Below are positions 2,824-27,717 of a DNA stretch of 64,000 bases, piece by piece (within the stretch, counting starts at the first letter, position 1; each line of letters opens with the position of its first letter). The notes below the pieces were generated by a model. It did not search any database. It was not told the origin of the DNA and saw only the letters and a program-made list of their open reading frames with translations. Origin of the DNA: Anaerolineae bacterium. GTDB taxonomy: Bacteria > Chloroflexota > Anaerolineae > Fen-1058. Position numbers and translations under genes: made by a program. Location of the stretch: contig DATDPU010000033.1 in the NCBI GenBank assembly GCA_035292585.1, positions 9,691-73,690 on the forward strand, read 5' to 3'.

Positions 2824-2875
2824 CCTCTCCTCCTATGTGAGTGTGGCTATGTGGGATATTTTACCGCAAATCCTC

Positions 2876-3634: not shown

Positions 3635-3766
3635 GCTGTTTTACTCGTCTGAAAAACGAGTGCCTTACCGTAGAGCACGCCGAGGGTTACGTGAGTTTTC
3701 TCCGCGCTCTCCGCGTCCTCGGCGGTGCGACAGGCTTTTTGCAGTGAAGTCGTTTCACGTATCCGT

Positions 3767-4465
3767 TCAGTTGCGCACCACGCGGCTATACGTCTCGCGA
3801 AAGCTCGCCGCCACGATTTCGTTCCGCCGCGCTACGTACACCAGGCGGCCCCGCGCGATCAGCAAGGCGCGATCGCACAACGCCAGCCCGCGATCGAGAT
3901 CGTGCGTCGTCATCACCACGGCGCGCTGGCCGTCGTGGAGGCGGCGCAGCGTCTCGGCCAACCGATCCGCCGCGTCGGGGTCCAGCCCGGTGAACGGCTC
4001 GTCGAGCAGCACGACGCGCGGGTCGTGCAACAAGGCGCGCGCGATCGATAGGCGCTGCTGCATGCCGCGCGAAAAAGTCCTGACCCGGTCCGTGCGCCGC
4101 TCGGCCAGATCGACTTGCTCCAGCAGGTCGTCGATGCGCGGCTCCGCATTTCGCACGTCGTACAACCGCGCGAAGAAACGCAGGTTCTCCTCGGCGCTCA
4201 ACTCGCCGTACAGCAGCGGTTGGTGCGAGAGGAAACCGATTTGCCGCCGCGCGTCGTCCGCACCTTTGGGCAGGGCATGCCCGGCGATCAACACCGCGCC
4301 GAACGTCGGGCGCGACAGCGTGGCCAGGATGCGCAGCAGCGTCGTCTTGCCCGCGCCGTTCGGCCCCATCAGCGAGACGAACTCGCCCGCCTCGACGCGG
4401 AACGCCATGTCGCGCAGCGCGATAAACGGGCCGAATTGCTTAATGAGACCGGAGACTTCAATCAT
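3767..4465 (-). CDS. ccmA: heme exporter ATP-binding protein CcmA
   Basis: Walker A GPNGAGKTT, ABC signature and Walker B LLDEP. Operon position upstream of ccmB. Confidence 0.85.
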   Translation of the reverse strand: MIEVSGLIKQFGPFIALRDMAFRVEAGEFVSLMGPNGAGKTTLLRILATLSRPTFGAVLIAGHALPKGADDARRQIGFLSHQPLLYGELSAEENLRFFARLYDVRNAEPRIDDLLEQVDLAERRTDRVRTFSRGMQQRLSIARALLHDPRVVLLDEPFTGLDPDAADRLAETLRRLHDGQRAVVMTTHDLDRGLALCDRALLIARGRLVYVARRNEIVAASFRETYSRVVRN

Positions 4466-4474
4466 ACCCTTGCG

Positions 4475-4508
4475 GAGAAACCCGGTTTCTTCAAGAAACC
4501 GGGTTTCT
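4475..4508. repeat. 33-bp double-palindrome element AGAAACCCGGTTTCT-TCA-AGAAACCGGGTTTCT (copy 1 of 3)
   Basis: Perfect 15-nt inverted repeat arms seen directly in the sequence. It lies in the ccmA/cytochrome-gene intergenic region, and related copies occur at 11541-11573 and 11994-12024. Confidence 0.8.
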
Positions 4509-4519
4509 AAATCCTAGTC

Positions 4520-6553: not shown

Positions 6554-7074
6554 CGCGCTACCTGCGTTCCCAGGGGCGCACCACATTTGGAGCAGAATGC
6601 ATCGCCGGCCTGGCTCGGCTTGCCGCAATTGGGGCAGGCCAACGCTTGATGCGGAGCGGCGCTGATCCCTTCAGCAGGTTTTCGCTTGCGCCGTTCGGCG
6701 ATCGCGGCTTCGAGCTCGGCGTCGGCGGTAGCCGGCTTGCGCTTGCGCCGGGCGGCGATTGCGGCTTCGAGCGCATCTTCAGCGGCCGCCGGCGCGGGGC
6801 CGGCCAGCGCATCGATCTGGCGCAGCACGTCGGCTGCCTGGGCGACTAAGCGTGCGCGCAGGGAGTCATGATCGGCAGCGATGATCTTGCCGGTAGCGTG
6901 ATCGAAATCGAGTTCGCGGATTTGCGTGTACAGCGCCTCGCGCTGCGCGAACAGCGTATCCAGCTGCGATTCGGCGGCAGGCGTCGCCCGGCGCGCCTGG
7001 CGCAGCGGTTGGCCGATGAAGAAGATCAGACCGATCACCAGCGCCAGGCCGATGAGAAGTGCCAAGATGTCCAT
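6550..7074 (-). CDS. small membrane protein with C-terminal zinc-ribbon (CPNCG...CSKCG) and internal 17-aa tandem repeat
   Basis: N-terminal TM helix, a coiled region containing AAIAARRKRKPATADAELEAAIAERRKRKPA, and a C-terminal CxxC-x9-CxxC motif. The start abuts the ccmG stop and the stop overlaps the cytochrome start, so it is part of the ccm operon. Confidence 0.5.
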   Translation of the reverse strand: MDILALLIGLALVIGLIFFIGQPLRQARRATPAAESQLDTLFAQREALYTQIRELDFDHATGKIIAADHDSLRARLVAQAADVLRQIDALAGPAPAAAEDALEAAIAARRKRKPATADAELEAAIAERRKRKPAEGISAAPHQALACPNCGKPSQAGDAFCSKCGAPLGTQVAR

Positions 7075-7641: not shown

Positions 7642-7651
7642 AGCCAATGCT

Positions 7652-7770
7652 GAATGTAGAATGTAGAATGTAGAATGTAGAATGTAGAATGTAGAATGTG
7701 GAATGTGGAATGTGGAATGTGGAAAAGCAGTCATTTCATCATTCGGCATTCTGCCTTCTACATTTCAGAG
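7652..7770. repeat. heptanucleotide tandem array (GAATGTA x6, GAATGTG x4) followed by a partial inverted copy
   Basis: Direct repeats seen in the sequence, in the ccmH-ccmG intergenic region. GCATTCTGCCTTCTACATTTC downstream is the inverted complement, giving hairpin potential. Confidence 0.8.
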
Positions 7771-10322: not shown

Positions 10323-10344
10323 GAGACACTCCTCCCAAGAAGTC

Positions 10345-10435
10345 AGGACTTACGCAGTTGGCGCGGCAGTTGCACTGCCGCCGCCTCATCTGCCGCAGTA
10401 CAACTGCGGCAGCAACATGCAGCTGCGTAAGTCCT
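10345..10435. repeat. 91-bp MITE-like element with 16-bp terminal inverted repeats AGGACTTACGCAGTTG (copy A)
   Basis: Seen in the sequence. It is near-identical to 19335-19425 and is the inverted counterpart of 17266-17352. It lies in the ccmF-ccmE intergenic region. Confidence 0.8.
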
Positions 10436-10507
10436 GGAAGTGATACGTGCTGCATGGCTTCACGCGCCTGCGCTCACCCCGCGCGGGCGCCTGCGTCACG
10501 TATCACG

Positions 10508-10930
10508 CTAATTTCCTAGCGACTGTTCGGGGAACTCTTCTTCGTAGCGGGTCGGGCACTTGAGCAGCAGCGAGTCGGCGTAAAATGTGCCGTCGGCGTT
10601 GAGACGGCCTTCCATGATTGCCTGAGCTTGATCTTGAAGCAGCTCGGGGCGCGGGCCTTCGTACTTGATGCGCAGCGGCTCCTGCGCGCCGATCTGGTCG
10701 ATGGTATCGACGACCGCAAATTCTAGTTGCAGGGCCTGCGCATCGTATTGAATCGTTTCGCCGATAATGGCGCCAGAGATGCGCACGCTCTGGTTTTGGA
10801 ACTCAGCTTCTTTCTGACGCAGCTGCTCGATCGATAAAAAGTACTGGGCGCCGCTGGCCAGCCCCTGCCCAATGATCACGGCCACAGCCATCAACAGCAA
10901 TGCTCCACCCAGCAAGACTTTCGGTTTCAT
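10508..10930 (-). CDS. ccmE: cytochrome c-type biogenesis protein CcmE, Cys-variant (CxxxY) heme chaperone
   Basis: N-terminal TM anchor, OB-fold CcmE pattern and C-terminal LLLKCPTRYEEEFPEQ, where Cys replaces the canonical heme-binding His of HxxxY. The start is chosen at MKPKVLL (10930). Confidence 0.8.
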   Translation of the reverse strand: MKPKVLLGGALLLMAVAVIIGQGLASGAQYFLSIEQLRQKEAEFQNQSVRISGAIIGETIQYDAQALQLEFAVVDTIDQIGAQEPLRIKYEGPRPELLQDQAQAIMEGRLNADGTFYADSLLLKCPTRYEEEFPEQSLGN

Positions 10931-11181
10931 AGCCCTCCTCATTTGCCCCGGCGCAGTTGTGGCAGACCTCAGGCCACAGGACATTTATACCTCGCGTACC
11001 TGGAAAGTGTCAATATAGGGTATCACCTATTTTAGCTGACTTTTGTCCGGTAGCTAACGGGAATCCAGGCGGGATCGATGCCGGAAAGCGGCTGAACCCG
11101 GCCAATACCGCCCGTTCGGCGCGCCTGCCGTGGTTAAAACAATGCCGTGGTGGCAGGCCGCCTGATTCTGGGAATTAGGTT

Positions 11182-11538
11182 CTATTCGTACTTCAGCGCT
11201 TGCATCGGGTTCAACGTCGCCGCGCGCAGCGCCGGACAGCCCCGACAGGACGCCGATGAACGCGGCGCCTGACCGGCCAGGAAGGCCAGCGCGATGACGT
11301 TGATGAGCTGGCCGGCCACCCAGTCCAACACCACGCCGCCGATCCCGCCGACCGACCCGATGCCGGCCGCCTCGCCCAGGAACACCGACAACACGTCACG
11401 GTTGGTCGCGCCGAGCGCCTTCGTCACCCCGATCTCGCGCGTGCGCTCCAGCACCGCTATCGCCATCGTGTTGGCGATGCCGATCGCCGCGACGAGCAGC
11501 GCGATCGCGCCCATCCCGCCGAAGATGACCTGCAACAC
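11182..11538 (-). pseudogene. C-terminal fragment of an FtsX-family (MacB/LolE-like) ABC permease
   Basis: Only the last about 115 aa of an FtsX domain are present (IANTMAIAVLERTREIGVTKALGA...). There is no upstream N-terminal or TM1 region, and the fragment begins exactly at the 33-bp palindromic element. Confidence 0.5.
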
Positions 11539-11540
11539 TC

Positions 11541-11573
11541 AGAAACCTGGTTTCTTAAAGAAACCAGGTTTCT
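11541..11573. repeat. 33-bp double-palindrome element AGAAACCTGGTTTCT-TAA-AGAAACCAGGTTTCT (copy 2)
   Basis: Seen in the sequence. It is translated in several spurious ORFs as KPGFFKKPGF. Confidence 0.8.
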
Positions 11574-11993
11574 CCGTGTTACCTTTCGGCCCGAACGGCT
11601 CGCCGGGATCGGGGCTGAGCACGGGCGTCGGGCGCACGCTATCGAGTCCGATCAGTCCGAGGAAGGCGCGCGCCAGCATATCGAAAAACGATTCCTCCGT
11701 CTGCGGCGGGCTGCCCTCACCGCCGGGTTGGTTCGGATCGATCGGCGGCTCGGGCTGCGGCAGCACTTCGATCTCGAGCGTGTCGCTGATCAGCTTCGAC
11801 TCGTTGAAGTCGTCCACGTAGTTGACGAGAATCGTCAACGTGAGCGGGCCGGGTTCGAGCGGCGGGGCTGGACTCAATGTGGTTTCAACAAGCGGTATCG
11901 GATGTCACTCAGGCTCAAACGAAAACGATCATAAGCGGAGAGAGGTTCCCCGTCAACTTGTGACGGACGGGTGGGGTTGCCCGGATGCATCCA

Positions 11994-12024
11994 GAAACCA
12001 GGTTTCTTGACGAAATGGTTTCTC
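11994..12024. repeat. degenerate copy of the 33-bp double-palindrome element (copy 3)
   Basis: AGAAACCAGGTTTCT-TGA-CGAAATGGTTTCT, lying just 3' of the L,D-transpeptidase gene. Confidence 0.6.
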
Positions 12025-12027
12025 AAG

Positions 12028-13065
12028 CTAGGTGACGACGATAGGCGTGCCGCCCTCATCGACCAGCACGACCGGCTCGGCATAATCGGTTGCCGGGTGC
12101 GACCAGCGAAAGAACCACAGCGCATCCGCCGGGGTCACGTTGACGCAACCGTGCGAGCGGGGGTGGCCGAAGTCGTTGTGCCAGTACGCGCCGTGAATCG
12201 CCGCGCCGGCCGTTGTGAAGTAGGTGCAAAAGGGCACGCCGGGCAGGTCGTAAAAATCCGAGCGTCCTTCGCCGCCCCGCATGTGGCGCGAGGGTCGCTT
12301 GCGCACCACGCGATGCCGGCCCGCGGGTGTGGTGTAGTTGAGCGTCCCCAGACCTTCGATGGTAAAGTAGGTGCCGGTGGCGCAGATCGTCGAATGCACC
12401 GCGACGCCAGCCTCGTAAGCCGTCACCCGCTGCTGCTGGATGTCTACTTCGACCATTTTGTCTTCCACGTCGGGCGAAAGCGGCGACATCTCGCTCGGCG
12501 GGATCGGGCGAACGTGATCGGCGCGCGCGTAGTGAATCAGCCCCGAAATGAAGTCATCCCTGATCCGATACCACCACACGCCCCGTGGGTCGCGCTGGGC
12601 GTCGATGATGAGGTGAACCGAAGCGTAATACAGGCGATAGGTGCGCCGCGCATCGGAATTGGGACGGGCACGCGCCTCGGTGAAGGGCACGCTGATCTGT
12701 CCCCAGAAGCCCTGCGGCGGCACAGCGCGCACGACCCAGCGCTGCCGTTCGTCGCGCACGGGTTGAACGTACGACGAGTACACCCAGCCGGTGCGGATGC
12801 GAAACCAGCGCGAGTTGTGCTTCGCCAGCCCGACCGTATCGGCTTCCTCGAAGATCGGCACGATCATATCGCGCTGCAAAGCGCCGCTGACCTCGCTCTC
12901 CGGATCGGGCGCGGCATAAATCCTCACCCGGGGCTGCGTGACGCGACCCAGTGTATCGGGCAGCGGCAGCCAGTCGCCCTGAGCGGCGATGGGCGATCCC
13001 AGCCAGGGCGCGATCAGACCGGTCCCGGCCAGCTGGAGGAAGGTGCGTCGGTCGAGCGACTGCAT
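12028..13065 (-). CDS. L,D-transpeptidase (YkuD family) with Tat signal
   Basis: RRTFLQLAG twin-arginine motif and the C-terminal catalytic HGCVNV (His/Cys) motif of the YkuD domain. Confidence 0.8.
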   Translation of the reverse strand: MQSLDRRTFLQLAGTGLIAPWLGSPIAAQGDWLPLPDTLGRVTQPRVRIYAAPDPESEVSGALQRDMIVPIFEEADTVGLAKHNSRWFRIRTGWVYSSYVQPVRDERQRWVVRAVPPQGFWGQISVPFTEARARPNSDARRTYRLYYASVHLIIDAQRDPRGVWWYRIRDDFISGLIHYARADHVRPIPPSEMSPLSPDVEDKMVEVDIQQQRVTAYEAGVAVHSTICATGTYFTIEGLGTLNYTTPAGRHRVVRKRPSRHMRGGEGRSDFYDLPGVPFCTYFTTAGAAIHGAYWHNDFGHPRSHGCVNVTPADALWFFRWSHPATDYAEPVVLVDEGGTPIVVT

Positions 13066-13084
13066 CGGAGTGAGTCCTGGTAAT

Positions 13085-13215
13085 TTTTAGAAGTTCAGGC
13101 AGCGGTTGTACGGCTGTCCATGCGCCGCCGCTGCACTGCGGCGCGAACCGACTGAAGTTCAGGCAGCAGTTGCACTGCTGCCCGGCTCCGCAGTGCAACT
13201 ACAGCGCGAACTTAC
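13085..13215. repeat. GC-rich hairpin repeat with direct duplication (GAAGTTCAGGCAGC...) and GCAGTTGCACTGC core
   Basis: Two about 45-bp direct repeats, each containing the GCAG(T/C)TG(C/T)ACTGC hairpin core shared with elements at 10345, 17266, 27718, 42496, 46335 and 49990. Confidence 0.6.
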
Positions 13216-13388
13216 TGGGGTGGTCCTTGACTGCGGTGTTGGGTCGAGTATAGCGAATTCGGCTGGTGATGCAAGTGGCGAGAAGCTAAGCGCTTTCCGC
13301 CGAATACGCAACATCGATCGGATGATGTTGGAGACGGCAAAGCGTGACTCCGATCCTATTGCGGCACTGAGGCTACGCCGTTGTCGCC

Positions 13389-13403
13389 AGACCTCCGAGG
13401 TCT
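13389..13403 (-). terminator. candidate stem-loop terminator AGACCTCCGAGGTCT downstream of the GNAT gene
   Basis: Near-perfect palindrome immediately 3' of the stop codon at 13403-13405. There is no U-tract, which is common in high-GC genomes. Confidence 0.3.
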
Positions 13404-13945
13404 CAAGCGCGATCTGGCGCAGCGTCTAGATTGATTTTGATCTCCCACACCCCAGCTTCCAGCTTTTTCTGGGCGGTCAGGCCGCTGCGCTGGATGAAGC
13501 GCATGATCTCGGCGTTGCTATAATGAACGGTGGCGAGGAAGGCGTGCACACCTTGCCCTCTGGCATACCCGACGAGCCGATCCACTAAGATTGTCCCCAG
13601 GCCGCGCTCCTGATAGTCGTCTTGGACGACAATCGCTGCCTCGGCCGTATCGAGCTGCGCCGAGTCAATTGCGGCGTAGCGCGCCACGCCGATGAGCTGC
13701 TCTGGCTCTTCGGCCAGCGCTGCGACGATCGCCATGCGCGTCCGATAGTCCACGTTCGCCAGCTGCTGCGCGTCGCGATCGGGCAGCGCCGTACGCTGGT
13801 CGAGAAAACGCAGGAAGATGCTCTCGGTGGACAGCCGCGCATGCAGCGCTTGCAGCCGAGGCGCATCATCAGGCTGGATCGCGCGGAGGCGCACCGCTGT
13901 GCCATCACGCAGCGTCACCGTTTCGGGCGGATAGGCGTTGGACAT
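13403..13945 (-). CDS. GNAT family N-acetyltransferase
   Basis: 180 aa with an acetyl-CoA binding motif region (QERGLGTILV...) typical of GNAT. Confidence 0.75.
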   Translation of the reverse strand: MSNAYPPETVTLRDGTAVRLRAIQPDDAPRLQALHARLSTESIFLRFLDQRTALPDRDAQQLANVDYRTRMAIVAALAEEPEQLIGVARYAAIDSAQLDTAEAAIVVQDDYQERGLGTILVDRLVGYARGQGVHAFLATVHYSNAEIMRFIQRSGLTAQKKLEAGVWEIKINLDAAPDRA

Positions 13946-14210
13946 GGTCTGCTCCTCACCTGCAGATAGGCAGATTATACGCCGGTACGCGGTAAACGCG
14001 CGTAGGAAACAGCGTGTGCACGGAAAACCTGTCAGACGGCAAGACCTGCGAGGTTTTGTTTAGAGCGCGTTACGGCGAAAGTGCCCGCATAAACCTCGCA
14101 GGTCTAATGAGCTGACAACGTTTGCGTGCGCAGGAAATAGCTGCGCGCTTGCCCGTCGATATGTTGTGCGCTACAATCGGCTCGCGCCACTGACGGCACA
14201 AGGAGCCAGC

Positions 14211-14768
14211 ATGAGCAATCGTCTAGCGAGAATGGTATTGAGCCTGGTCGTGGGATCGATCGGAGTAGCGATCGGCCTGTACTTTGGCCGCTTCATCGCT
14301 GGCGGCGTTGGCTTGCTGTTTGCCTCGTCACGGCAGGCGATCCCTATCGCCACCAGCACGGCGTGGTGGGCTTTCATCGGCCTGATCGGCGGGCTGGCGC
14401 TGGCTTTTAGCGCCGTGCGCAAGCATCGTGTTTTATTAGTGCTGGCCTCGATTGTGGGTTTTGCGTTGGGCGGCGCGATCGCGGCTTTGCCGGAGGCGAG
14501 CCGCATCGATCGCAGCGCGCTGTTGGCAACGCTGGCCGTGTGGCTCGGTGGTGCGCTGGCGGGATTATTGTTGGGTCTAGGGGCGCGGCTTGGTGTTCGC
14601 GCACTCGTGCTGGCCGCTGCCGGGGCGCTGGCGATGTTTTTGGCGCGATCACATCTGGAGGCGTTGATCCCGCCATCCGACGTGTTCGCGTTGCTCGCGC
14701 CGGGCGCGCTGCTCGGCGTAGTGCTGGCTGCGCTTGCGCCCGAGAGGGCAGCGGCGCCGCCCGCGTAA
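14211..14768 (+). CDS. hypothetical integral membrane protein
   Basis: Five to six hydrophobic Gly/Ala-rich helices with no recognisable motif. The start is chosen at MSNRLARM. Confidence 0.45.
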   Translation: MSNRLARMVLSLVVGSIGVAIGLYFGRFIAGGVGLLFASSRQAIPIATSTAWWAFIGLIGGLALAFSAVRKHRVLLVLASIVGFALGGAIAALPEASRIDRSALLATLAVWLGGALAGLLLGLGARLGVRALVLAAAGALAMFLARSHLEALIPPSDVFALLAPGALLGVVLAALAPERAAAPPA

Positions 14769-15345
14769 CCACGCGCAGGCTGCGAGCGCGCAAGCGCTGG
14801 GGTTACCGGGTATCACCCGTGGTTGGGTACAACGGGGGATACTGCTCTAAGAGCGTCTTGAACAGGAAGTGAGGCGTGCTGCTCATCCGCGCTTGCTGTG
14901 CTCGGCGCAGATGTTCCTCTGCTCTGGCGAGCGCCTCTTCAGCCGACGTGAGTATCGTATCGAGCCGTGTGCCTACGGTCGTGGGTGATTGATCCGGCGT
15001 GGCTGGCAGGAAGATCATTTCAGACATCGTGCGCCCCTTTAAGCTCGATGACCTATGCACTATAACCCCGGTTCCTGCACGTGATTCAGGCTGGCTGTCT
15101 AAGCACGGTATGAGTTTCGTGCCGCTATGGTATGGATTGAAATCGGTTGAGAGGCTTTCATCTTTTGCACACTGGCTACGGACGCGGTGTGCGCTTATCG
15201 ATCGGGCAGCGCCTCAAGGGCTAAGTTCGCCGGTTAAGAATCGTAGGAAAGGCTCTATACCCGATCGAACCGAAATGACGCTGATCCCAACGCCGATTCG
15301 CGCGCGGCAGTTTGGGGAAAGTTATCGATTAGAATTTCCGAGAGG

Positions 15346-16263
15346 ATGGTTCGGATGGAATCGATCGTGCTTAGACAGGCTCACAGTTCAAGACGACTGC
15401 TCGTCGTGTTTCCGCATCCAGACGATGAAACGTTCGGTCCGGGCGGGACGATCGCGCGCTATGCGCGGGAGGGCGTCGCCGTGCATTATGCCTGCGCCAC
15501 GCGCGGCGAAGTCGGCAGCGTCACGCCAAAACTGCTCGAGCCGTTTGAGCACTTGCCGGAAGATCAGCGCCTGGGTGCGCTACGCGAAGGTGAGCTGCGG
15601 TGCGCCGCCGAGAAGCTCGGGCTGACCGGGCTGCATCTGCTCGGTTATCGCGATTCGGGGATGCCGGGCGCCCCGGAGAACCGCGACCCGCGCGCCTTCG
15701 TCAACGCCGATCCGGATGGGGTGACGGGCCAGGTGGTGCAGTTGATCCGATCGATCCAACCCCAGGTGATCATCACCTTCGATCCCTTCGGCGGCTACGG
15801 CCATCCCGATCACATCTTCGCGCATCGATGCGCGATGGAAGCATTCCGCGCCGCCGGCGATCCGACGCGCTATCCCGAAGCCAACATGCCTTACCAGCCG
15901 CAGAAGCTGTACTGGACGGCGTTCCCGCAACGCTGGCTGCGCTGGTCCGTGCGGCTGATGCCCATGCTGGGACGCGATCCCTCGAAGTTCGGCCAGAACA
16001 AAGATATCGACTTGCGGCGGATTGTCGAGCAGGCGTCGCCGCATCCGATCACCACACGCATCGACGTCTGGCCGTATTACGCGATCAAATCTGAAGCGTC
16101 GGCGTGCCATGCCAGCCAGGCCGGCCCGGTCAGCTCGTTGGGCAGCCTGCCGCGTTGGCTGCAACGCCGGGTCTTCGGCTACGAACAGTTCACCCGCGTG
16201 GAACCGGCGGTAAACGGGAATCGGCTGAAGGAACGAGACCTGTTCGAGGGCGTCAACGAATAG
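15346..16263 (+). CDS. PIG-L/LmbE family deacetylase (MshB/BshB-like)
   Basis: VVFPHPDDETFGPGGTI motif and the conserved His/Asp pattern (HPDH) of the LmbE-like zinc deacetylases. Confidence 0.8.
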   Translation: MVRMESIVLRQAHSSRRLLVVFPHPDDETFGPGGTIARYAREGVAVHYACATRGEVGSVTPKLLEPFEHLPEDQRLGALREGELRCAAEKLGLTGLHLLGYRDSGMPGAPENRDPRAFVNADPDGVTGQVVQLIRSIQPQVIITFDPFGGYGHPDHIFAHRCAMEAFRAAGDPTRYPEANMPYQPQKLYWTAFPQRWLRWSVRLMPMLGRDPSKFGQNKDIDLRRIVEQASPHPITTRIDVWPYYAIKSEASACHASQAGPVSSLGSLPRWLQRRVFGYEQFTRVEPAVNGNRLKERDLFEGVNE

Positions 16264-16285
16264 GCAAGCCTCGCGCGAAGCGCGA

Positions 16286-16312
16286 CCCCCGCCCGAAGGA
16301 GGGGCGGGGCAG
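16286..16312 (+). terminator. candidate GC-rich stem-loop after the deacetylase gene (CCCCGCCC-gaaggag-GGGCGGGG)
   Basis: 8-bp perfect stem seen 25 nt after the stop. No U-tract. Confidence 0.3.
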
Positions 16313-16463
16313 GTGGTAGGCGAATAAACGAATGCAAGAGTCGCATCGCGGCGACGATGACAAACGCATGTAGGAGTTGCCTCCCGGCGACGACGAACAA
16401 ACGGATGCAGAGGTCGCCGGGAGGCAACGCTGGATAGCTCATCGCACGACAGGAGGTCTTAAC

Positions 16464-17240
16464 ATGAAACGCGCGCGTCTTTGGGTAGGGGCAGTGCTGC
16501 TGATCGGTTTGATGTTCGGCGCCTGGCCGGCGGCGGCGGCGGACAGTGTGTCGGTTGGCATCTACAGCATCGCCGCATGCAAAGATGTGTCAACGGTGAC
16601 GGTCAACGGATCGTCCACCTATTCAAACAATCGACTCGACGTGAGCCTCTATCATAAGAATGACAAAGGCCAGGATGTGCTGCTCAAGCAGGTCTTTTCA
16701 TCTGCGTTCGGAGCGGGCCAGTTCATGTTGGCGGTGACCGTGCCTTACACCAACACAGCCGCGGCCGAAGGTGAAGCGCTACGTGTGGAGGTGCAGGCGC
16801 AGCGCTTGAGCGGCAACACCTATGTGGACGTGGGCAATCAGGTGGTGCAGAACGTGACCGTGGCGGATAGGAACTGCTTCACCAAGTGCAGTGTCACGGT
16901 CGACGCCACCGATACAGCGCCGGCTGCCGGCACGCTCACGCTGCGCACCCACTTCGGTGAGTGGTTCCGGCCGGAAGGTCGTTTGCAGGGCGCCATGCCC
17001 GTCAGCGCCGGGAAGAAGGCGCGCGTAGTGTTCGTCGGCGTTCCGTGTAATTGGCCGGTGCGCGTCTGGTACTATCCCAAAACTGGCGATAAGACCCCGA
17101 AGCTGCTGCCGGCGCAATATTGGCCGAACGAATACCAGGCGAACCAGCTGAACGGGACCAATCCTTACACGACTTCATTCGCTAAGGGCCTGAAGCCGAC
17201 TCATCCACTCGAAAGCGACGATCCATTCGTCGTGAAGTGA
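16464..17240 (+). CDS. secreted hypothetical protein (signal peptide, beta-rich)
   Basis: ATG at 16464 preceded by AGGAGG, an N-terminal signal peptide ending in AAADS, and no recognisable catalytic motif. Confidence 0.6.
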   Translation: MKRARLWVGAVLLIGLMFGAWPAAAADSVSVGIYSIAACKDVSTVTVNGSSTYSNNRLDVSLYHKNDKGQDVLLKQVFSSAFGAGQFMLAVTVPYTNTAAAEGEALRVEVQAQRLSGNTYVDVGNQVVQNVTVADRNCFTKCSVTVDATDTAPAAGTLTLRTHFGEWFRPEGRLQGAMPVSAGKKARVVFVGVPCNWPVRVWYYPKTGDKTPKLLPAQYWPNEYQANQLNGTNPYTTSFAKGLKPTHPLESDDPFVVK

Positions 17241-17265
17241 ATGGATAGCTGCTTCTCTATAGACC

Positions 17266-17352
17266 AGGACTTACGCAGTTGCATGTTGCTGCCGCAGTTG
17301 TACGGCAGATGGGGCGGCGGCAGTGCAACTGCCGCACCAACTGCGTAAGTCC
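17266..17352. repeat. 91-bp MITE-like element (copy C, inverted orientation relative to copies A and B)
   Basis: Same AGGACTTACGCAGTTG termini. The internal sequence is the reverse complement of copy A with a few mismatches. Confidence 0.8.
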
Positions 17353-17412
17353 TATAAACACAAAACTCCCGCCCTTGTGTGGAGGACGGGAGTTTGCTTT
17401 TATAGGTGCTCG

Positions 17413-17637
17413 ACTAGTACCCCGACCGCCTCATTCTGCGGGGTTCGGACGGCACAACCCTCTTCGCTGCGCTCGTGGGCAGGCCGCCGCCCTCTTTAGA
17501 AGGCAATGAAAGGCGGCGGCTGGCACTGCCGTCCGCCGCAGTGCTGGCCGCCGCCCTCTTATAAGAAGGCAGTGAAAGGCGGCGGTCATGCGGCAGGAAC
17601 TATGCAACTTCAAGTTGTCGAAGTACTAGCCTGAAAA
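17413..17637. repeat. GC-rich hairpin element family E, long copy with duplicated internal hairpin
   Basis: Shares the ACTAGTACCCCGACCGCCTCATTCTGCGGGGT...GGCGGCGGTCATGCGGCAGGAACTATGCAACTTCAAGTTGTCGAAGTACTA ends with 42496-42648. It contains two GGCCGCCGCCCTC...GAAAGGCGGCGGC hairpins. Confidence 0.75.
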
Positions 17638-17752
17638 ACACGGCTCTTGACACAGAATGACCTTGATCTTGACAGGCGTATTGTGAGTAGATTGTGAGCA
17701 GTTGAGCCGAGTTTCTCTAATTTGACATCGCTTCAGAAAGGGGGCAATCAAC

Positions 17753-19207
17753 ATGGAACGCCATTTTCGACACAAGGCACTGCGTGTTGGCATAACTCTA
17801 CTCGTCGGCGTGAGTTTTTTAGTGTTCGCGATGCTGCTGCTTCGAGCAAACTCGATTGTTCAAGCCACGGGTATCAAATCTTCACAAACGATTGGTAGCC
17901 AGGTTAGCGACATAGCCAATCCAGCCTGTGAAATGACATCCACTGTACTGGCCGCGTATCAGGTCTGGCATGGGTTGACACAGACTCACCAGCAGCCGCC
18001 GCCCTATCTTTCCATCGATCCCGACGTGATCTCCAGACACATTCGATCGGCTCAGGCGCAGTGTATTGATGGGTTCGTGGTGGACTGGTACGGGCCGCCC
18101 ACCGGTCTGCCAAATGACGAGCGAGGTTACATGGATCAAGCGACGGCTGAACTTCTACGCCAGTCGGCGGATCGTGGATTCAAAGTCGCCTTGATGTATG
18201 ACGAGGGGGCGCTCTCAAGTGTAACGGCCAATACCACAACACGGGTGATCAGCGATCTTCTTTACGCCAGACAATATTTCACCCTGTCGAGTTATCTCAC
18301 GATCTCCGGGCGCCCGGCTCTCTTTATCTTCCCCTATGACAATGTTGACCCTCATATCGACTGGTCAACAGTCCGCCAACAGTTGGGCATCTCCTTCACC
18401 CTGCTCGATAAAGATCCAGACCCGAACCAACTCGCACACGATGCTTTGTTCGATGGGTTTTACGCTTGGGTGTATTCACCTTCCTGGCCGACGAGCACTC
18501 TGGACTGGGGCGAGGATTACTTGAAATGGTTCTATCCGGCAATGAAAACATCGCCTTATGTGACTAAGACCGTCGTTGGCGGTGTATGGCCGGGCTTCGA
18601 CGATAGCGGGGCTGCGTGGGGGCAAGGTCGCTATATCTCACGGCGCTGCGGAGCAACCTGGCTCGATACCTGGAACCTGGCCAAGCAATATCAGCCTCCC
18701 TTGGTGTTGATCGGGACCTGGAATGACTTCGAAGAAGGCACAGACATTGAGTACGGCATCCTTCCAAAGCCAGCATGGCAGGAAGACTTCGATCCCATTC
18801 AAAGGACCTGGATGACTCCGACGGCGAGATGGGAAGACGTTCCCGGGCCTACAGCCATCTTGCGTGAAAACAACCCTGCCGAATCCTTTGGCAAGGTGGA
18901 ATCGGAGGTCATCACGGCGAATGTAGATCTTTATCCCCTGCTACGGGTCAACGTCACAGCCGTTGACGCAGACGCCAGTTACACCGTCCAGATTCTGGAT
19001 AAGCGCACGGACATCGCAACAGATGTGCTCAAAGAGATCACCGCGCCCGGCAGGCACATCGTCAACCTCGCTCAACAAATGGGGTGGCAAGGCCCGCAAT
19101 CCTTCACGCTCAACATCTGGATCGGCGGCGAGGGAAAAACCGCCACATTCGATCGTGTGAGTATTGAGGCGTGTTACTACATCTACCTACCCGCCGTTAT
19201 CAGGTGA
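17753..19207 (+). CDS. secreted/membrane-anchored glycoside hydrolase, GH99/GH71-like (tentative family)
   Basis: N-terminal TM/signal, DGFVVDWYG and IGTWNDFEEGTDIE motifs resembling GH99 endo-mannosidase-type (NEWHEGTQIE) catalytic regions. The gene lies in a markedly lower-GC segment. Confidence 0.5.
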   Translation: MERHFRHKALRVGITLLVGVSFLVFAMLLLRANSIVQATGIKSSQTIGSQVSDIANPACEMTSTVLAAYQVWHGLTQTHQQPPPYLSIDPDVISRHIRSAQAQCIDGFVVDWYGPPTGLPNDERGYMDQATAELLRQSADRGFKVALMYDEGALSSVTANTTTRVISDLLYARQYFTLSSYLTISGRPALFIFPYDNVDPHIDWSTVRQQLGISFTLLDKDPDPNQLAHDALFDGFYAWVYSPSWPTSTLDWGEDYLKWFYPAMKTSPYVTKTVVGGVWPGFDDSGAAWGQGRYISRRCGATWLDTWNLAKQYQPPLVLIGTWNDFEEGTDIEYGILPKPAWQEDFDPIQRTWMTPTARWEDVPGPTAILRENNPAESFGKVESEVITANVDLYPLLRVNVTAVDADASYTVQILDKRTDIATDVLKEITAPGRHIVNLAQQMGWQGPQSFTLNIWIGGEGKTATFDRVSIEACYYIYLPAVIR

Positions 19208-19334
19208 GGCAAATCCACTACACGTGACCCATTGTTACCGAAAACACACGGCGACGCTCAAGTGAATGTCTGCTTGGCTCCGAATAGAGCCAAGCAGTTT
19301 CTTGTTTGAGATAACTGTTCTGTGTCTTTTGGAC

Positions 19335-19425
19335 AGGACTTACGCAGTTGGCGCGGCAGTTGCACTGCCGCCGCCTCAGCTGCCGCAGTACAACTGCGGC
19401 AGCAACATGCAGCTGCGTAAGTCCT
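19335..19425. repeat. 91-bp MITE-like element (copy B)
   Basis: One mismatch relative to copy A. It lies immediately 3' of the low-GC glycoside hydrolase gene. Confidence 0.8.
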
Positions 19426-19568
19426 GTTGGATTCTAGTTCTGGTCACAGTTTTTGTCCAACCGGTCGCCAATTGAGCCTTGCATCATTACTTGCATCTCC
19501 GCCCTAACCGGTTATACTACCTCCCGGCAACTTCGATTTTCCGTGCAACTCGATCCAGGAGACATGCA

Positions 19569-21788
19569 ATGTCGTCCTGCCCCTCGTGCGGGCGCGATGT
19601 CGGTTCGCACGTTACCTGTCCCCACTGTGGCGCGAACCTTAAACGCCGCCTGACCATCAGCCTGTTCGGCCTGCTCGCGATCCTGCTGGCGGTCGGCGGG
19701 CTGGGGCTGTTGTGGTACGTCTCCGTCAATACGGCGCTCCCCACGATCCGCATTGGCCAGATTCAGGCGGCGCAGAACTATGCTTACGTTCGCCTCGACG
19801 GCGTCGTCAAGCGCAGCCCGCGTTTCAACCCCGATTCCGAAGCGCTCACGTTTTGGATCGACGACGGCAGCGGGCAGATGCTCGTGTCCGCGTTCCGCTC
19901 GGACGCGCGCGCGTTGATCGCCGCCGATCGCGTGCCGGCGCTGGGCGATCGTATCTCGGTCGCGGGCACGTTGCGCGTGCGCGACGATACACCGTCCTTG
20001 ACGCTCAACTCGCCGGATGCGCTGACGCTGTCGCGCGCGATCGATGCCGCGCAGGCGCGTGAGCTCGGCGCGCTGTCGGCGGCCGATGCCTTCACCGCCG
20101 TCACCGTGCGCGGGCAGGTGCGCGCCGTGCGCGAGCCGCCATCTGCGGGCGGCCTGCGCTTGCTCACGATCCGCGACGCGACGGGTGAAATCGATGTGGC
20201 GATCAGCGCCGACATGGCAAGCTGGGGCGCGCCCGCTCCCGAAGTGCAGACCGGCGCTTCGATCGAGGTGACCGGCGTGGTCACGCTGTACGAAGACGAG
20301 CCGCAGCTCACGCTGACACGCGGCGATGGCTTAGCGCAGCTGAGTGAGCCGATCGAGATCGCGCAGCTCACGCCGATCCGGGGATTGGGCGACGATGACC
20401 TCAGCCGCTGGGTGCGGGTTCAGGGCACCATCGCCAAAATTGCGCCGTTCTCCGCCGGCGTGAAGTTCACGCTCAACGACGTGCAGGGCCAGGACCTCAT
20501 TCTGCTGCTGTGGCAAGATGTCTTCGAAGCGCTGCCGGATAGCGCCGACTGGCAAATCGGCGCCGAGGTGGCGGCGCAGGGGCAGCTGAATTCGTTCCGG
20601 GGTGAATTGGAGCTGGTGCCGGAGGTCGCGCTCGACGTCGCGATCCTGAATCGCGCCATCGTCGAAGCGCCGCCTACGCTCAACCTGACCGGCATCGGCA
20701 CGATCACCCAAGAAGACCTGGGCCAGATGGTGTTCATCAGCGGGACGATCGAGAGCGCCGATCGGTTTACCAGCGGCGTGCGCTTCCGGGTGGAGGATCA
20801 CACCGGTTCGATCCTGCTGGTGCTATTCAGTAACGTGTATGAACAGATTGAAACCGGCGACCGTTTGGAAGATGGCGTGAGCGTCTCGGCGCTGGGTCGG
20901 GTGAGCGAATTCAACGGTGCGCTGGAGATCGTTCCGCCGAACGGCGCAAGTGTGCGGGTCTTGCTGGATACTGAGATCGCCCAGGTCACACCCACGCCGC
21001 CGCCGGCCCCGACAGCCATCCCCCTGCCCACGCTCACGCCCGGCAACGTGACGACTGGCACGTTTCAACCGACGCCTCTACCGAGTTTGACCGGCACGCC
21101 CTCGCTGACGCCCTTGCCCGATTTGACCGGCGCGCCAGCACCGACGCCGCTGCCCGACCTGACCGCCACGGCTGCGCTGACCCCTGCCGCCGGCGAGGTG
21201 ATGACAATCGGCTCGCTCGATGCCTCGCGGATCGGGCAGCAGGTGACAGTGCGCGGCCAGGTGATCTCGGCATCCAGCTTCTCGGCCGGGTTCCGCTTTA
21301 CGCTGAACGACAACTCCGGTTCGATCCAGCTGGTCTTGTTCGACGGTCGGTACCGCGAACTCACAAATCGCGCGGAGCTGAATCTCGGCGCGCAAGTCAG
21401 CGTCAGGGCGATGCTGGCCGAGTTCAACGGCGCATTGGAACTCCAACCAGCCGTCGGCAGCGACGTCAGCATCGAGCAACCCGGCTCATCGTCGATCGTC
21501 AAGACGCGCGCGATCAACACGCTGTCCACGGCCGACGTGGGCACCCTCGCCGCCGTCATCGGCGACGTGTTGCGCGTGGAAGGTTTCTCGTCGGGCATCA
21601 GCGTGTTCGTCAACGACGGCACAGGCGAGCTGCGCATCGTCATCTTCAACAACGTGTTGAACTACGTTCCCAACGCGCCCGCGCTGCAGGCCGGCGCGAA
21701 GGTGCGTGTGACGGGTCGCGTCGACGAGTTCAACGGTGCGCTCGAACTGGTGCCGGCGTTGGGTTACGATGTGGCGGTGAATCCGTGA
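19569..21788 (+). CDS. membrane protein with N-terminal zinc ribbon and six tandem OB-fold (tRNA_anti-like) repeats
   Basis: ATG 19569 with an AGGAGA Shine-Dalgarno; CPSCG...CPHCG zinc ribbon; one TM helix; six about 100-aa repeats each with the V.V.G.V....F..G..F.L.D..G.I.LVLF pattern; and a Pro/Thr-rich linker (PTPLPSLTGTPSLTPLPDLTG...). Confidence 0.65.
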   Translation: MSSCPSCGRDVGSHVTCPHCGANLKRRLTISLFGLLAILLAVGGLGLLWYVSVNTALPTIRIGQIQAAQNYAYVRLDGVVKRSPRFNPDSEALTFWIDDGSGQMLVSAFRSDARALIAADRVPALGDRISVAGTLRVRDDTPSLTLNSPDALTLSRAIDAAQARELGALSAADAFTAVTVRGQVRAVREPPSAGGLRLLTIRDATGEIDVAISADMASWGAPAPEVQTGASIEVTGVVTLYEDEPQLTLTRGDGLAQLSEPIEIAQLTPIRGLGDDDLSRWVRVQGTIAKIAPFSAGVKFTLNDVQGQDLILLLWQDVFEALPDSADWQIGAEVAAQGQLNSFRGELELVPEVALDVAILNRAIVEAPPTLNLTGIGTITQEDLGQMVFISGTIESADRFTSGVRFRVEDHTGSILLVLFSNVYEQIETGDRLEDGVSVSALGRVSEFNGALEIVPPNGASVRVLLDTEIAQVTPTPPPAPTAIPLPTLTPGNVTTGTFQPTPLPSLTGTPSLTPLPDLTGAPAPTPLPDLTATAALTPAAGEVMTIGSLDASRIGQQVTVRGQVISASSFSAGFRFTLNDNSGSIQLVLFDGRYRELTNRAELNLGAQVSVRAMLAEFNGALELQPAVGSDVSIEQPGSSSIVKTRAINTLSTADVGTLAAVIGDVLRVEGFSSGISVFVNDGTGELRIVIFNNVLNYVPNAPALQAGAKVRVTGRVDEFNGALELVPALGYDVAVNP

Positions 21789-21864: not shown

Positions 21865-23184
21865 ATGGACACACTCATCCTGATCGGCCTGGCGGTGCTG
21901 GGCGCGGTGGCGTCAGCGGGGCTGGCGCTGATCCCGGCGTTGCACATCTACAACGTCGCCGGGCTGCTGATCCTCGTCGCCGGTTCGCTGTCATCTATCC
22001 TCAACCTCGATCAACTAGCGCTGCTGTTGCTCGGCATGGTCGTCGGCTACTCGATGCTGAACACGATCCCGGCGACATTCCTGGCCGCGCCGGACGAGTC
22101 GGCGGCGTTCATCGTGCTGCCCGCGCAGAAGTGGCTGCTGCAGCGGCGCGGTTACGAAGCGGTCGTCCTCACCGGCGTCGGCGGGTTAGGCGGGCTGGCG
22201 GTTGTCGTCGCGCTCAGCCCGTTTGCCGGCGAAGCCGCGCGCATCCTGCAAGCGATCGTCGCGCCGCACCTCGGCTGGATCCTGCTGGCCGTCAGCGCCT
22301 TCATGCTGATGTCGGAGTGGCCCAAAGCGGGCGAGCGCGGCCGGACGCGCATCGGGCGTTTCCTCGCCGCGTGGACCGGGTTGGGCGCCGGGATTCTCAC
22401 CTTCTTTTTGTCCGGCCTGCTCGGCTTCATCATCATCTATCGCAGCGTCGTGCCGACCGAGGTCGCGTTTCAGAATTTGCTGCCGGCGTTCCTCGGCTTG
22501 TTTGCCGTGCCCATGGTCCTGGCGAACTTCATCATGGGCACGCGCATTCCTGAGCAATACCTGTCCACCTCGCTCGACGTGTCTCCGTCCCACTTGCTGC
22601 GCGGCATCGCTTCGGGCACGCTAGGCGGGTTGTTCGCCGCGTTCTTCCCGGTGGTGACCGGCGGCGTCGGTGGGTTCCTCGCCGCGCATGCGACGGCGCA
22701 ACGCGACGACCGCACGTTCATTCTCTCGCAAGGCGCTTCGAAATCGGTGTACTACGTCGGCGGCTTTCTGTTGTTCTTCGTGCCGGGCCTGCACCTGGCG
22801 CGCGGCGGCATGGCGGCGATGCTCAGCACGATTTACACGCCGGCGACGCCGTTGCTGTACTTTACCGCCGTGGCGGCCATCGCGGTGAGCGGGGCGGTTT
22901 CGTTCTTGCTGTTGATCGCGTTGAGCCGCCTGGCGATCCGCGTGGTCGAGCGCGTTCATTACCGCGTGATTAACGCCGCGACGCTGGCGATCCTGGTCAC
23001 GCTGGTGGCTGCGCTGACTGGTCCCGGCGGGTTGCTGATCATGCTGGCCGCAACGGGCATCGGCCTGATCCCGACGCTGTTCGGCTCGCGGCGCATGAAC
23101 TGCCTGGGGGTGTTGCTGCTCCCGATCACACTCAACCTGCTGGGACTGGGGCCGTCGGTGGCAAGGCTGCTGGGACTGATCTGA
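21865..23184 (+). CDS. polytopic membrane protein, possibly TctA/DUF112-family transporter subunit (tentative)
   Basis: About 12 predicted TM helices and Gly-rich helices. The family call is weak and is pattern resemblance only. Confidence 0.4.
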   Translation: MDTLILIGLAVLGAVASAGLALIPALHIYNVAGLLILVAGSLSSILNLDQLALLLLGMVVGYSMLNTIPATFLAAPDESAAFIVLPAQKWLLQRRGYEAVVLTGVGGLGGLAVVVALSPFAGEAARILQAIVAPHLGWILLAVSAFMLMSEWPKAGERGRTRIGRFLAAWTGLGAGILTFFLSGLLGFIIIYRSVVPTEVAFQNLLPAFLGLFAVPMVLANFIMGTRIPEQYLSTSLDVSPSHLLRGIASGTLGGLFAAFFPVVTGGVGGFLAAHATAQRDDRTFILSQGASKSVYYVGGFLLFFVPGLHLARGGMAAMLSTIYTPATPLLYFTAVAAIAVSGAVSFLLLIALSRLAIRVVERVHYRVINAATLAILVTLVAALTGPGGLLIMLAATGIGLIPTLFGSRRMNCLGVLLLPITLNLLGLGPSVARLLGLI

Positions 23185-23249
23185 ATGTAGAATGAAGAAT
23201 GAGGAATGAGGAATGAAGAATGAGGAATGAGGAATGCAGAATGCAGAAA
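23183..23249. repeat. heptamer tandem array GAATGNA x9, upstream of the four-helix-bundle gene
   Basis: Seen in the sequence. It has the same GAATGTA unit as the array at 7652. Confidence 0.8.
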
Positions 23250-23630
23250 GGGGGAAATGTGGCTAGCAAAGCGCCGCGCAATATTCAAGAGCGAACATTT
23301 GAATTCGGCCTCCGGATTGTGAGACTGGTCGATCGACTGCCGAGGACGCTATCGGCGACAGAAATCGGACGGCAGATGTTGCGCTCCGGCACATCGGTCG
23401 GCGCGAATATGGAGGAGGCGAAGGGCGCGGAAAGTCGACGTGACTTCATCCACAAGACCAGTACGGCATACAAAGAGGCGCGCGAAACTTTTTATTGGTT
23501 GAGCCTGATCGATGCTGCCGTTCTTTGTCGTGACCAAGAAGTTCTTTCGCTTCGTCAAGAATGCGATGAAGTTATCCGTATCCTCCACACCATCTTACGC
23601 AAGGCACGCTCATCACAGCAAGCGGCGTAA
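23241..23630 (+). CDS. four-helix-bundle protein (TIGR02436-type, so-called 23S rRNA intervening-sequence protein family)
   Basis: About 125 aa with the characteristic FEFGLRIVRL...LPR...IGRQMLRSGTSVGANMEEA...EA..YWL helical pattern. The start is uncertain because the track ORF begins inside the heptamer array. Confidence 0.7.
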   Translation: MQKGGNVASKAPRNIQERTFEFGLRIVRLVDRLPRTLSATEIGRQMLRSGTSVGANMEEAKGAESRRDFIHKTSTAYKEARETFYWLSLIDAAVLCRDQEVLSLRQECDEVIRILHTILRKARSSQQAA

Positions 23631-23633
23631 TTT

Positions 23634-23685
23634 TCTTCATTCTCAATTCTTCATTCTCAATTCTTAATTCTACATTCTGCATTGA
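23634..23685. repeat. inverted heptamer array (reverse complement of GAATGAA/GAATTGA units) downstream of the four-helix-bundle gene
   Basis: The reverse complement reads GAATGTA GAATTAA GAATTGA GAATGAA GAATTGA GAATGAA. It forms a long inverted repeat with 23183-23249 across the gene. Confidence 0.8.
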
Positions 23686-27652: not shown

Positions 27653-27717
27653 ACTTCCTCCCTACGACAAAGTTGAGCGCTTGCAGTGCGGCGAGTGCTT
27701 CGACAATCTAAAGTTGC

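Follow-up and report, generated by a model that had tools for sequence, protein, structure and literature searches.

The window, a 64,000-nucleotide stretch of Anaerolineae DNA, contains three copies of a 90-93-bp repeat, every one intergenic and each lying between 5-bp direct repeats. Copy 1 sits in the 186-nt spacer between ccmE and ccmF of a minus-strand ccm (cytochrome c maturation) operon, with the ccmF ribosome-binding site a few bases downstream. Copy 2 was found between the stop codon of an ORF (16377-17240) and a terminator-like hairpin (17363-17395). Copy 3 follows a GH71/99-like gene (17753-19207), whose terminator-like hairpin (19270-19297) also precedes the copy, and lies upstream of an OB-fold gene. 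The copies are not consistently oriented with respect to the transcription units around them. The same arrangement recurs in independent assemblies (JGI 3300002124 contigs L002 and L157, and Logan L003) and is therefore not an assembly artefact. The features are as follows.

10339-10343: left target-site duplication of copy 1, GAAGT; its register was confirmed with 97 elements
10344-10436, plus strand: putative MITE copy 1, 93 bp, CAGGACTTACGCAGTTG...CAGCTGCGTAAGTCCTG
10363-10381, plus strand: internal hairpin A, GCGGCAGT-TGC-ACTGCCGC
10390-10412, plus strand: internal hairpin B, CTGCCGCAGT-ACA-ACTGCGGCAG
10437-10441: right target-site duplication of copy 1, GAAGT
17260-17264: left flanking repeat of copy 2, TAGAC; four of five positions equal the right repeat
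17265-17354, minus strand: putative MITE copy 2, 90 bp, inverted; hairpin B lacks 3 nt and the 16-bp inverted repeats match perfectly
17355-17359: right flanking repeat of copy 2, TAAAC
19329-19333: left target-site duplication of copy 3, TTGGA; same site and duplication in JGI contig L002
19334-19426, plus strand: putative MITE copy 3, 93 bp, one mismatch to copy 1
19427-19431: right target-site duplication of copy 3, TTGGA

A sequence-only reading of this DNA had described a 91-bp MITE-like element with perfect 16-bp terminal inverted repeats. We found the three copies where that reading had placed them; however, the element reaches one base further on each side (Y...R), which gives lengths of 93, 90 and 93 bp. 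Copies 1 and 3, given there as 10345-10435 and 19335-19425, do differ by a single base (T/G at 10389/19379). Copy 2 is indeed inverted with few mismatches: it is the reverse complement at approximately 93% identity, with a few substitutions and the 3-nt deletion in the second hairpin, but it ends at 17353/17354 and not at 17352. The element termini are YAGGACTTACGCAGYTG, and the terminal repeats span 16-17 bp with 15/16 to 16/16 positions matched among the three copies. In copy 2 they are perfect over 16 bp, as had been claimed; in copies 1 and 3 one of the 16 positions is mismatched (AGTTG vs AGCTG). The 16-mer AGGACTTACGCAGYTG occurs six times in the window, compared with 0.06 expected from shuffling. 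Both of the paired interior hairpins were present as described. The element contains no ORF confined to it and has no coding capacity, and its 90-93 bp are far below the 600 bp used here as the size limit of a MITE. Since copies 1 and 3 differ by one base and have two derived bases in common, they probably arose recently.

The sequence-only reading had proposed looking for target-site duplications, having missed those in the sequence itself. The 5-bp repeats flank all three copies and are perfect in two of them, with four of five positions matching in copy 2. The element is also not restricted to these sites. The same sub-family was found at three further sites in JGI metagenome contigs, where the flanks are unrelated to the window and the duplications (TAATG, ACATA and ATTCC) are all perfect. 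Thus six distinct insertions, three in the window and three in JGI contigs, each have their own target duplication and have a 59-bp interior in common at 93-99% identity, except for that in L154, a shorter 82-bp variant whose interior is partly different. No empty allele of the three window sites was found; the closely related JGI contigs L002 and L157 and Logan L003, which come from the same population, carry the insertions.

Elements with the same ends are widespread. Among 97 such elements from public genomes the 5-bp duplication was perfect in 60 and had one mismatch in 8, in exactly the register of the window copies. Shifted registers gave almost no duplications beyond partial overlap with the true register, and the target profile showed W at -2 and +2. 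When the interiors of 110 same-end elements were compared they fell into about 30 unrelated, host-specific clusters; most form hairpins, and only the ends are conserved. The hosts include Cyanobacteria, Chloroflexi, Armatimonadota, Acidobacteria, Poribacteria, a gammaproteobacterium, a CPR bacterium and others. Scanning viral contigs with the 16-mer returned 41 loci and yielded a 70-bp MITE (L041) and an end adjacent to a transposase in L010; 31 of the 41 loci represent one conserved phage gene in which the 16-mer occurs by coincidence.

The same ends were found on insertion sequences that carry a transposase. In Allomeiothermus silvanus a transposase gene abuts the end TAGGACTTACGCAGTTGG, and its product matched NCBIfam NF049921 (transpos_IS701_2) with 405 bits against a cut-off of 250, as well as Pfam DDE_Tnp_1 and DDE_5. 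RefSeq names this element ISMesi2 and annotates the protein as 'IS701-like element ISMesi2 / ISAba11 family transposase'. We recovered full-length elements of 1066-1107 bp encoding a DDE transposase of 331-343 aa from ten fetched loci, which represent seven independent insertions (Meiothermus, a Thaumarchaeota MAG and metagenomes). Their ends read T-AGGAGTTACGCAGTTG...CAACTGCGTAA(G/C)TCCT-A, with one right end of ...CTCAT-A. Perfect 5-bp duplications flank six of the seven insertions; the seventh, L142, is without one (GAGGA/TGGAG). The fetched full-length elements and ISAba11 carry YAGGA(C/G)TTACGCAG(T/C)TG at their ends, ISAba11 diverging past position 13. In insertion sequences and MITEs alike the duplication is 5 bp and lies one base outside AGGA...TCCT. 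Classical IS701 members produce a 4-bp duplication (PMC2266710); therefore, the match is specific to the ISAba11 group. Two other kinds of element do not fit. A 5-bp duplication is likewise made by Tn3-family derivatives, but their 38-bp ends read GGGG...; IS630/Tc1-type elements give a TA duplication, unlike the 5-bp repeats of the 93-bp element. A second repeat family in the window does fit the TA duplication of IS630/Tc1-type elements.

Comparison with named systems places the window element close to three insertion sequences. ISAba11 of Acinetobacter baumannii, in the ISAba11 group of the IS701 family, carries a DDE transposase and has the ends T-AGGACTTACGCA...TGCGTAAGTCCT-A and the duplication CATAT (L161); like the window element it has the 5-bp duplication one base outside AGGAC...GTCCT. 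At 1101 bp, with its own 342-aa transposase, it differs from the non-coding window element of 90-93 bp, whose GC-rich hairpin interior is unrelated; past position 13 the ends read ATTGAC in ISAba11 and AGTTGG in the window element. ISMesi2, from a plasmid of A. silvanus DSM 9946, is closer at one end: its right end TAGGACTTACGCAGTTGGC equals the MITE left end over 18-19 bases, and its 5-bp duplication is in the same register as in the MITE. However, ISMesi2 is autonomous, 1092 bp long, and its left end is AGGAGTTAC and not AGGACTTAC. It has approximately 7000 metagenomic relatives. The stop codon (TAA) of its transposase falls within the terminal repeat, and this overlap may be part of the reason for the strong conservation of the end sequence. 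The third, ISPlag1 of Planktothrix agardhii, encodes a 337-aa transposase of the IS701 group; its published terminal repeat, CAGGACTTACGCAAGC..., begins CAGGACTTACGCA, in agreement with the ends of the window element (PMC2464740). Its terminal repeats are longer (29-48 bp) and AT-rich past position 13, and its host is a cyanobacterium whereas that of the window element belongs to the Anaerolineae. In the literature, the end sequence and its variants led only to the ISPlag1 paper, the other matches being unrelated primers.

Classical MITEs such as Correia of Neisseria, Nezha of Anabaena-Nostoc and MITEAba12 of Acinetobacter are likewise small, non-coding, intergenic and multicopy. They share terminal inverted repeats, target duplications and a predicted strong hairpin with the window element, and their mobility is presumed to depend on an insertion sequence transposase acting in trans. 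Their terminal sequences and parent families are different, as is the length of the duplication, which is TA in Correia elements and 9 bp in MITEAba12 (in part from PMC6382973).

The absence of a transposase from the window, as claimed by the sequence-only reading, held up. Using six transposases of the ISAba11/ISMesi2/ISPlag1 group as tblastn queries we detected none of the matching family in the window, and Pfam tables covering most of the window list no transposase of any kind. The copies are therefore non-autonomous. No autonomous partner turned up in the window, the 9.7 kb of contig upstream or the contigs carrying the sub-family; for the host MAG this search covered one 73.7-kb contig. 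The tblastn search of host-related contigs and of the 97 genome loci also returned nothing, and no paired ends 250-4000 bp apart, as expected of an autonomous copy beside the MITEs, were present in any of the fetched loci. Mobilisation of the copies in the Anaerolineae host was probably in trans.

Taken together, the terminal repeats, the 5-bp duplications, the non-coding intergenic copies, the further sites and the IS701-type ends and register bear out the MITE reading. We conclude, with a probability of about 0.9, that the repeat is a non-autonomous DNA transposon (MITE) of the ISAba11/ISMesi2/ISPlag1 group of the IS701 family. A DDE transposase of approximately 331-343 aa, supplied by a full-length element at another location in the genome or on a transient plasmid, would bind the 16-17-bp terminal inverted repeats, excise or copy the element and insert it at a 5-bp staggered cut, and repair of the stagger would leave the 5-bp direct repeats. 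Preferred target sites would be intergenic and A/T-rich, having A or T at the second base beyond either end of the duplicated pentamer. On the evidence of the ends and register, the transposase that moved these copies was probably one of the ISAba11 group.

An alternative is that the repeat acts chiefly as RNA, either as a structured non-coding gene or as a cis-regulatory element, in which the terminal stem would close a three-way junction, and that it was dispersed because several loci need its function. The fold is very stable, at -62.6 kcal/mol as RNA, and against shuffled sequences the whole element gave z = -8.8 as RNA and z = -9.9 as DNA; however, terminal inverted repeats give a stable fold automatically. 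In plus-strand RNA the lone terminal mismatch of copies 1 and 3 would form a G-U wobble pair, and copy 1 lies inside an operon just upstream of a ribosome-binding site. Against this, there was no Rfam match at the gathering threshold in the whole window, and at E<=1 the copy 1 locus returned noise only (isrG had the best E-value at 14.9 bits and the top score was 16.4, where thresholds are 50-100). No promoter-like site was found at the copy 1 locus; near copies 2 and 3 there was one promoter-like match, no excess over shuffled sequences. The inconsistent orientation of the copies relative to flanking transcription and the 5-bp duplications, which mark transposition, also argue against an RNA function, as do the 110 elements that keep the transposase-type termini while the interior is replaced from host to host. 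A structured RNA, which the sequence-only reading had left as its alternative, is thus very unlikely, and the GC-rich hairpin interior appears to be host-type passenger sequence rather than functional RNA.

The interior also raises the question of whether the repeat is a REP/REPIN palindrome spread by a RAYT, an IS200/IS605-like tyrosine transposase, and not by a DDE transposase. The hairpin module GCAGTTGYACTGC is REP-like and has 11 matches in the window against 0.06 expected, six of them outside the MITE within other repeat families, and the hairpin A module GCAGTTGCACTGC likewise occurs outside the MITE in the same genome. However, REPINs, which are inverted pairs of imperfect short palindromes, make no target-site duplications, whereas the window copies have them; the termini are identical to the ends of DDE-transposase elements; and the annotated parts of the window contain no RAYT or Y1 transposase. 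This makes the REPIN explanation highly improbable for the 93-bp unit, although it could apply to the hairpin module itself. A precedent exists for each copy being the remnant of a full-length insertion sequence that decayed in place by internal deletion, since ISPlag1 has left 197-bp non-coding remnants at former insertion sites in Planktothrix (PMC2464740). Those remnants were described as deletion products at insertion sequence sites and not as a proliferating MITE family. In our data the six insertions have the same interior, L154 apart, but different duplications, whereas independent deletions would not yield identical junctions. The MITE interior also has no similarity to the interiors of the full-length elements and so gives no sign of a simple internal deletion of an insertion sequence. 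Independent decay in situ is therefore exceedingly improbable.

For the window, identifying the repeat as a MITE of the ISAba11 group explains three intergenic repeats as ordinary, widely spread selfish DNA, and suggests that the Anaerolineae host has been exposed, probably recently, to an ISAba11-group transposase. Copy 1, so close to the ccmF ribosome-binding site, could, speculatively, alter mRNA folding there. More tentatively, the window element may belong to a superfamily of ISAba11-group MITEs that spans phyla and is undescribed as such; in it, ends of 13-17 bp would have stayed the same while being joined, time and again, to unrelated interiors, host-specific and mostly forming hairpins. 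The Anaerolineae interior is built from the REP-like module, also found in two or more further repeat families of this genome; such sharing would point to modular exchange between the families, or to transposon ends having captured host palindromes, and not to simple internal deletion of an insertion sequence. ISAba11 inactivates lipid A genes in Acinetobacter. The element is mobile in clinical Acinetobacter (PMC7760358), and full-length members of the group are found in an archaeal MAG as well. The signature YAGGACTTACGCAG together with the 5-bp duplication provides a simple and very specific tag for the insertion sequences and MITEs of this group in bacteria, and MITEs with host-specific hairpin interiors, having arisen repeatedly, form a natural data set on the origins of bacterial MITEs.

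The sequence-only reading described a 91-bp MITE-like element in three copies, two with a common orientation (10345-10435, 19335-19425) and an inverted one at 17266-17352, and our analysis confirmed this overall, with the inverted copy at 17266-17353. A repeat finder paired 10344-10436 with 19334-19426 at 99% identity and returned 17265-17354 as an inverted repeat of both. By BLASTN copy 1 was 98.9% and about 93% identical to the other copies, and no further full-length copy of the 93-mer was detected within the window. The terminal 16-mer AGGACTTACGCAGYTG had six matches in the window, two per copy, versus 0.06 expected from shuffles. The terminal repeats had been called perfect, which is true of copy 2 only, while in copies 1 and 3 they agree at 15/16 positions (AGTTG versus AGCTG). 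We found that each copy also carries a flanking 5-bp direct repeat one base outside AGGAC...GTCCT, which had been overlooked. Since these repeats start one base out, the element is Y-AGGAC...GTCCT-R.

MITE copies and their flanking repeats
10344-10436, plus, copy 1, 93 bp; left GAAGT, right GAAGT
17265-17354, inverted, copy 2, 90 bp; left TAGAC, right TAAAC
19334-19426, plus, copy 3, 93 bp; left TTGGA, right TTGGA

The element is predicted to fold into a long terminal stem around two hairpins, with a folding energy of -41.3 kcal/mol as DNA (z = -9.9) and -62.6 kcal/mol as RNA (z = -8.8); the second hairpin of copy 2 has lost 3 nt by deletion. Copies 1 and 3 differ by one base and have two derived bases in common (an outer C and CAGCTG), which suggests a recent duplication within this lineage. 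The same arrangement of copies was present in independently assembled contigs of JGI sample 3300002124 and in a Logan assembly, which rules out an assembly artefact. No uninserted allele of the three sites turned up among the closely related JGI contigs.

The window belongs to a 73.7-kb metagenome contig (ENA ERZ27254861, k141_3321696) whose proteins were deposited as "MAG TPA: Anaerolineae bacterium". Each of the three copies is intergenic. Copy 1 occupies part of the 186-nt ccmE-ccmF spacer in a cytochrome c maturation operon on the minus strand, with the ccmF ribosome-binding site a few bases downstream. A stop codon and a terminator-like hairpin (17363-17395) bracket copy 2, and copy 3 directly follows another such hairpin (19270-19297). 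The copies show no consistent orientation with respect to the transcription units on either side. Just outside the 5' end of the window we observed genes for a tyrosine recombinase (Phage_integrase), a D12-class adenine methyltransferase and an Eco57I/BsuBI-type restriction enzyme (15610-20337 of fetched locus L158; record positions about 2200-6900 of the contig), which may form a small mobile or defence island.

To look for the same ends elsewhere, AGGACTTACGCAG-N(40-70)-CTGCGTAAGTCCT was scanned against one genome per GTDB species, giving at least 97 loci. The matches listed include cyanobacteria (J069, Dapis, Okeania, Floridaenema, Leptolyngbyaceae, Vacuolonema), Chloroflexi (Caldilineaceae, Litorilinea, Dehalococcoidia, Anaerolineae, Thermomicrobiales) and single matches in Armatimonadota, Blastocatellia, Poribacteria, one gammaproteobacterium and one CPR bacterium. 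Among these listed matches conservation was restricted to the ends, with Y as the outermost base at the left end and R at the right; the interiors fell into about 30 unrelated clusters, most with strong hairpins, and their G+C (0.32-0.69) seemingly tracks the host. Of the 97 distinct insertions listed, 60 have a perfect 5-bp duplication in the register seen in the window and 8 have one with a single mismatch; shifted registers gave essentially no duplications beyond the effect of partial overlap. The reconstructed target sites of the listed matches are A/T-rich, with A or T in 95-96% at -2 and +2 of the pentamer. A metagenome scan for the Anaerolineae sub-family (ends plus hairpin A, 10363-10381) returned five JGI contigs that account for three new sites; the flanks of these are unrelated to the window and the duplications are perfect (TAATG, ACATA, ATTCC), and one site holds an 82-bp variant. 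Viral contigs were also searched with the 16-mer. In 31 of 41 (L004-L044) it sits inside one conserved phage gene (…ACGGACAAGGACTTACGCAGTTGTCCAATGGGTAG…), and we rejected these occurrences as coincidental rather than transposon ends. A genuine MITE with the same ends, 70 bp long, is present in viral contig L041.

A full-text literature search with the end sequence returned one relevant paper, on ISPlag1 of Planktothrix agardhii. ISPlag1 is 1306 bp long with terminal repeat CAGGACTTACGCAAGCACGCTATATATAG, codes for an IS701-group transposase of 337 aa and leaves 197-bp remnants (PMC2464740). Independently of this, the viral-contig scan led to an Allomeiothermus silvanus plasmid (L010, 12570-13577) in which TAGGACTTACGCAGTTGG adjoins a 333-aa ORF whose TAA stop codon falls within the terminal repeat. 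This protein scored 405 bits on NCBIfam NF049921 "IS701 family transposase" (cut-off 250) and also matched Pfam DDE_Tnp_1 and DDE_5; RefSeq names the element ISMesi2. At E<=1e-10 the transposase has 7000 homologues or more, with source names including Meiothermus, Synechococcus, Actinobacteria, Thaumarchaeota and Freyarchaeota.

Ten fetched loci with ISMesi2-like transposases represent seven independent insertions of 1066-1107 bp, with ends T-AGGAGTTACGCAGTTG...CAACTGCGTAA(G/C)TCCT-A and one right end ...CTCAT-A. At six of the seven the 5-bp duplication is perfect and in the MITE register, the exception being L142 (GAGGA/TGGAG). ISAba11 of Acinetobacter baumannii (1101 bp, duplication CATAT), whose protein is only about 40% identical, has the ends T-AGGACTTACGCA...TGCGTAAGTCCT-A. 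The group's end signature is YAGGA(C/G)TTACGCAG. Classical IS701 members make 4-bp duplications (PMC2266710), therefore the window MITE matches the ISAba11/ISMesi2/ISPlag1 group specifically. In the ISMesi2-like elements (L010, L142-L151) the transposase ORF ends in the right terminal repeat (...CCA ACT GCG TAA GTCCT), so the end sequence is under both coding and transposase-binding constraint. This double constraint may contribute to the unusual conservation of the ends across phyla and between Bacteria and Archaea. The MITE resembles ISMesi2-like elements over only about 18-20 bp per end (right/left) and its interior is unrelated to IS interiors, thus origin by simple internal deletion is not demonstrated.

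The hairpin module GCAGTTGYACTGC had 11 matches in the window versus 0.06 expected. Six of the 11 are not part of the three MITE copies but lie inside other small intergenic repeats, for example the tandem unit 13090-13215, and the module behaves like a REP-type palindrome common to several repeat families. A second MITE-like family of 86-214 bp has ends TAGTACYYCGAC...GTCGRRGTACTA (5 end matches versus 0.14 expected) and appears to be TA-flanked, as in IS630/Tc1-type elements; its modular interior combines the GGCAGTTGCACTGCC hairpin of the main element with GCCGCCC...GGGCGGC hairpins. Tandem heptamers (GAATGTA / GAATGAG / GAATGTG)n are present at three loci, in inverted orientation at one. 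Tandem 15-nt and 18-nt repeats (CTCC[AG]GATGCCGACC and relatives) with the common lead-in GTAGGAGGCATCTCC occur at three loci at, or close to, starts and junctions of minus-strand genes, such as upstream of where an ABC-2 permease begins and across the 3' end of a glycosyltransferase ORF, and within one cytochrome c protein they would code for an SASGDG linker. A 474-nt inverted repeat of 80% identity joins two response-regulator/histidine-kinase hybrid genes, which are probably paralogues.

Other repeats in the window
13166-13202, 27730-27742, 42533-42545, 46342-46354, 50042-50054, GCAGTTGYACTGC module outside the MITE
17415-17628, 42496-42645, 27694-27779, second MITE-like family
7650-7726, 23181-23257, 23633-23683, tandem heptamers
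5579-5639, 6370-6412, 28794-29018, tandem 15/18-nt repeats
34967-35440 and 50263-50736, 474-nt inverted repeat
34217-35509, minus, and 50251-51447, plus, hybrid genes

Using tblastn, six transposases of the ISAba11/ISMesi2/ISPlag1 group matched nothing in the window, and the group's transposases matched nothing elsewhere on the contig, in other contigs carrying the sub-family or in the 97 fetched genome loci. Pfam tables for the annotated parts of the contig list no transposase and one tyrosine recombinase, upstream of the window. Both results agree with the earlier statement that the window holds no transposase. We propose that the MITE would be mobilised in trans by an ISAba11-group DDE transposase of the IS701 family, which would recognize the 16-17-bp ends and insert the element at a 5-bp staggered cut. 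What is established for the MITE is its anatomy, its duplications, ends and duplication register equal to those of the autonomous elements, the lack of a local transposase and further sites. Judged from sequence, it is very probable (about 0.9) that the repeat is a non-autonomous MITE of the ISAba11/ISMesi2/ISPlag1 group, and a transposase of this group would have moved the window copies.

The REP-like nature of the interior module GCAGTTGYACTGC would fit a REP/REPIN, however the 5-bp duplications and DDE-type ends contradict this, and we consider it very improbable. A structured RNA is just as improbable: there was no Rfam match, orientation is inconsistent between copies and conservation across hosts is limited to the ends. 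That the copies are independent remnants of insertion sequences decaying in situ is the least probable of all, as the interior is near-identical at six different sites of the sub-family. The 5-bp duplications, the ends of autonomous elements and the further insertion sites instead support the original MITE interpretation. We regard the element as an Anaerolineae sub-family of MITEs that stem from a named IS group or are moved by one. One aspect is possibly new, the breadth of the elements, with the same ends found in many phyla around dozens of unrelated host-type hairpin interiors. In this Anaerolineae genome a hairpin module is, in addition, common to the MITE and other repeat families.
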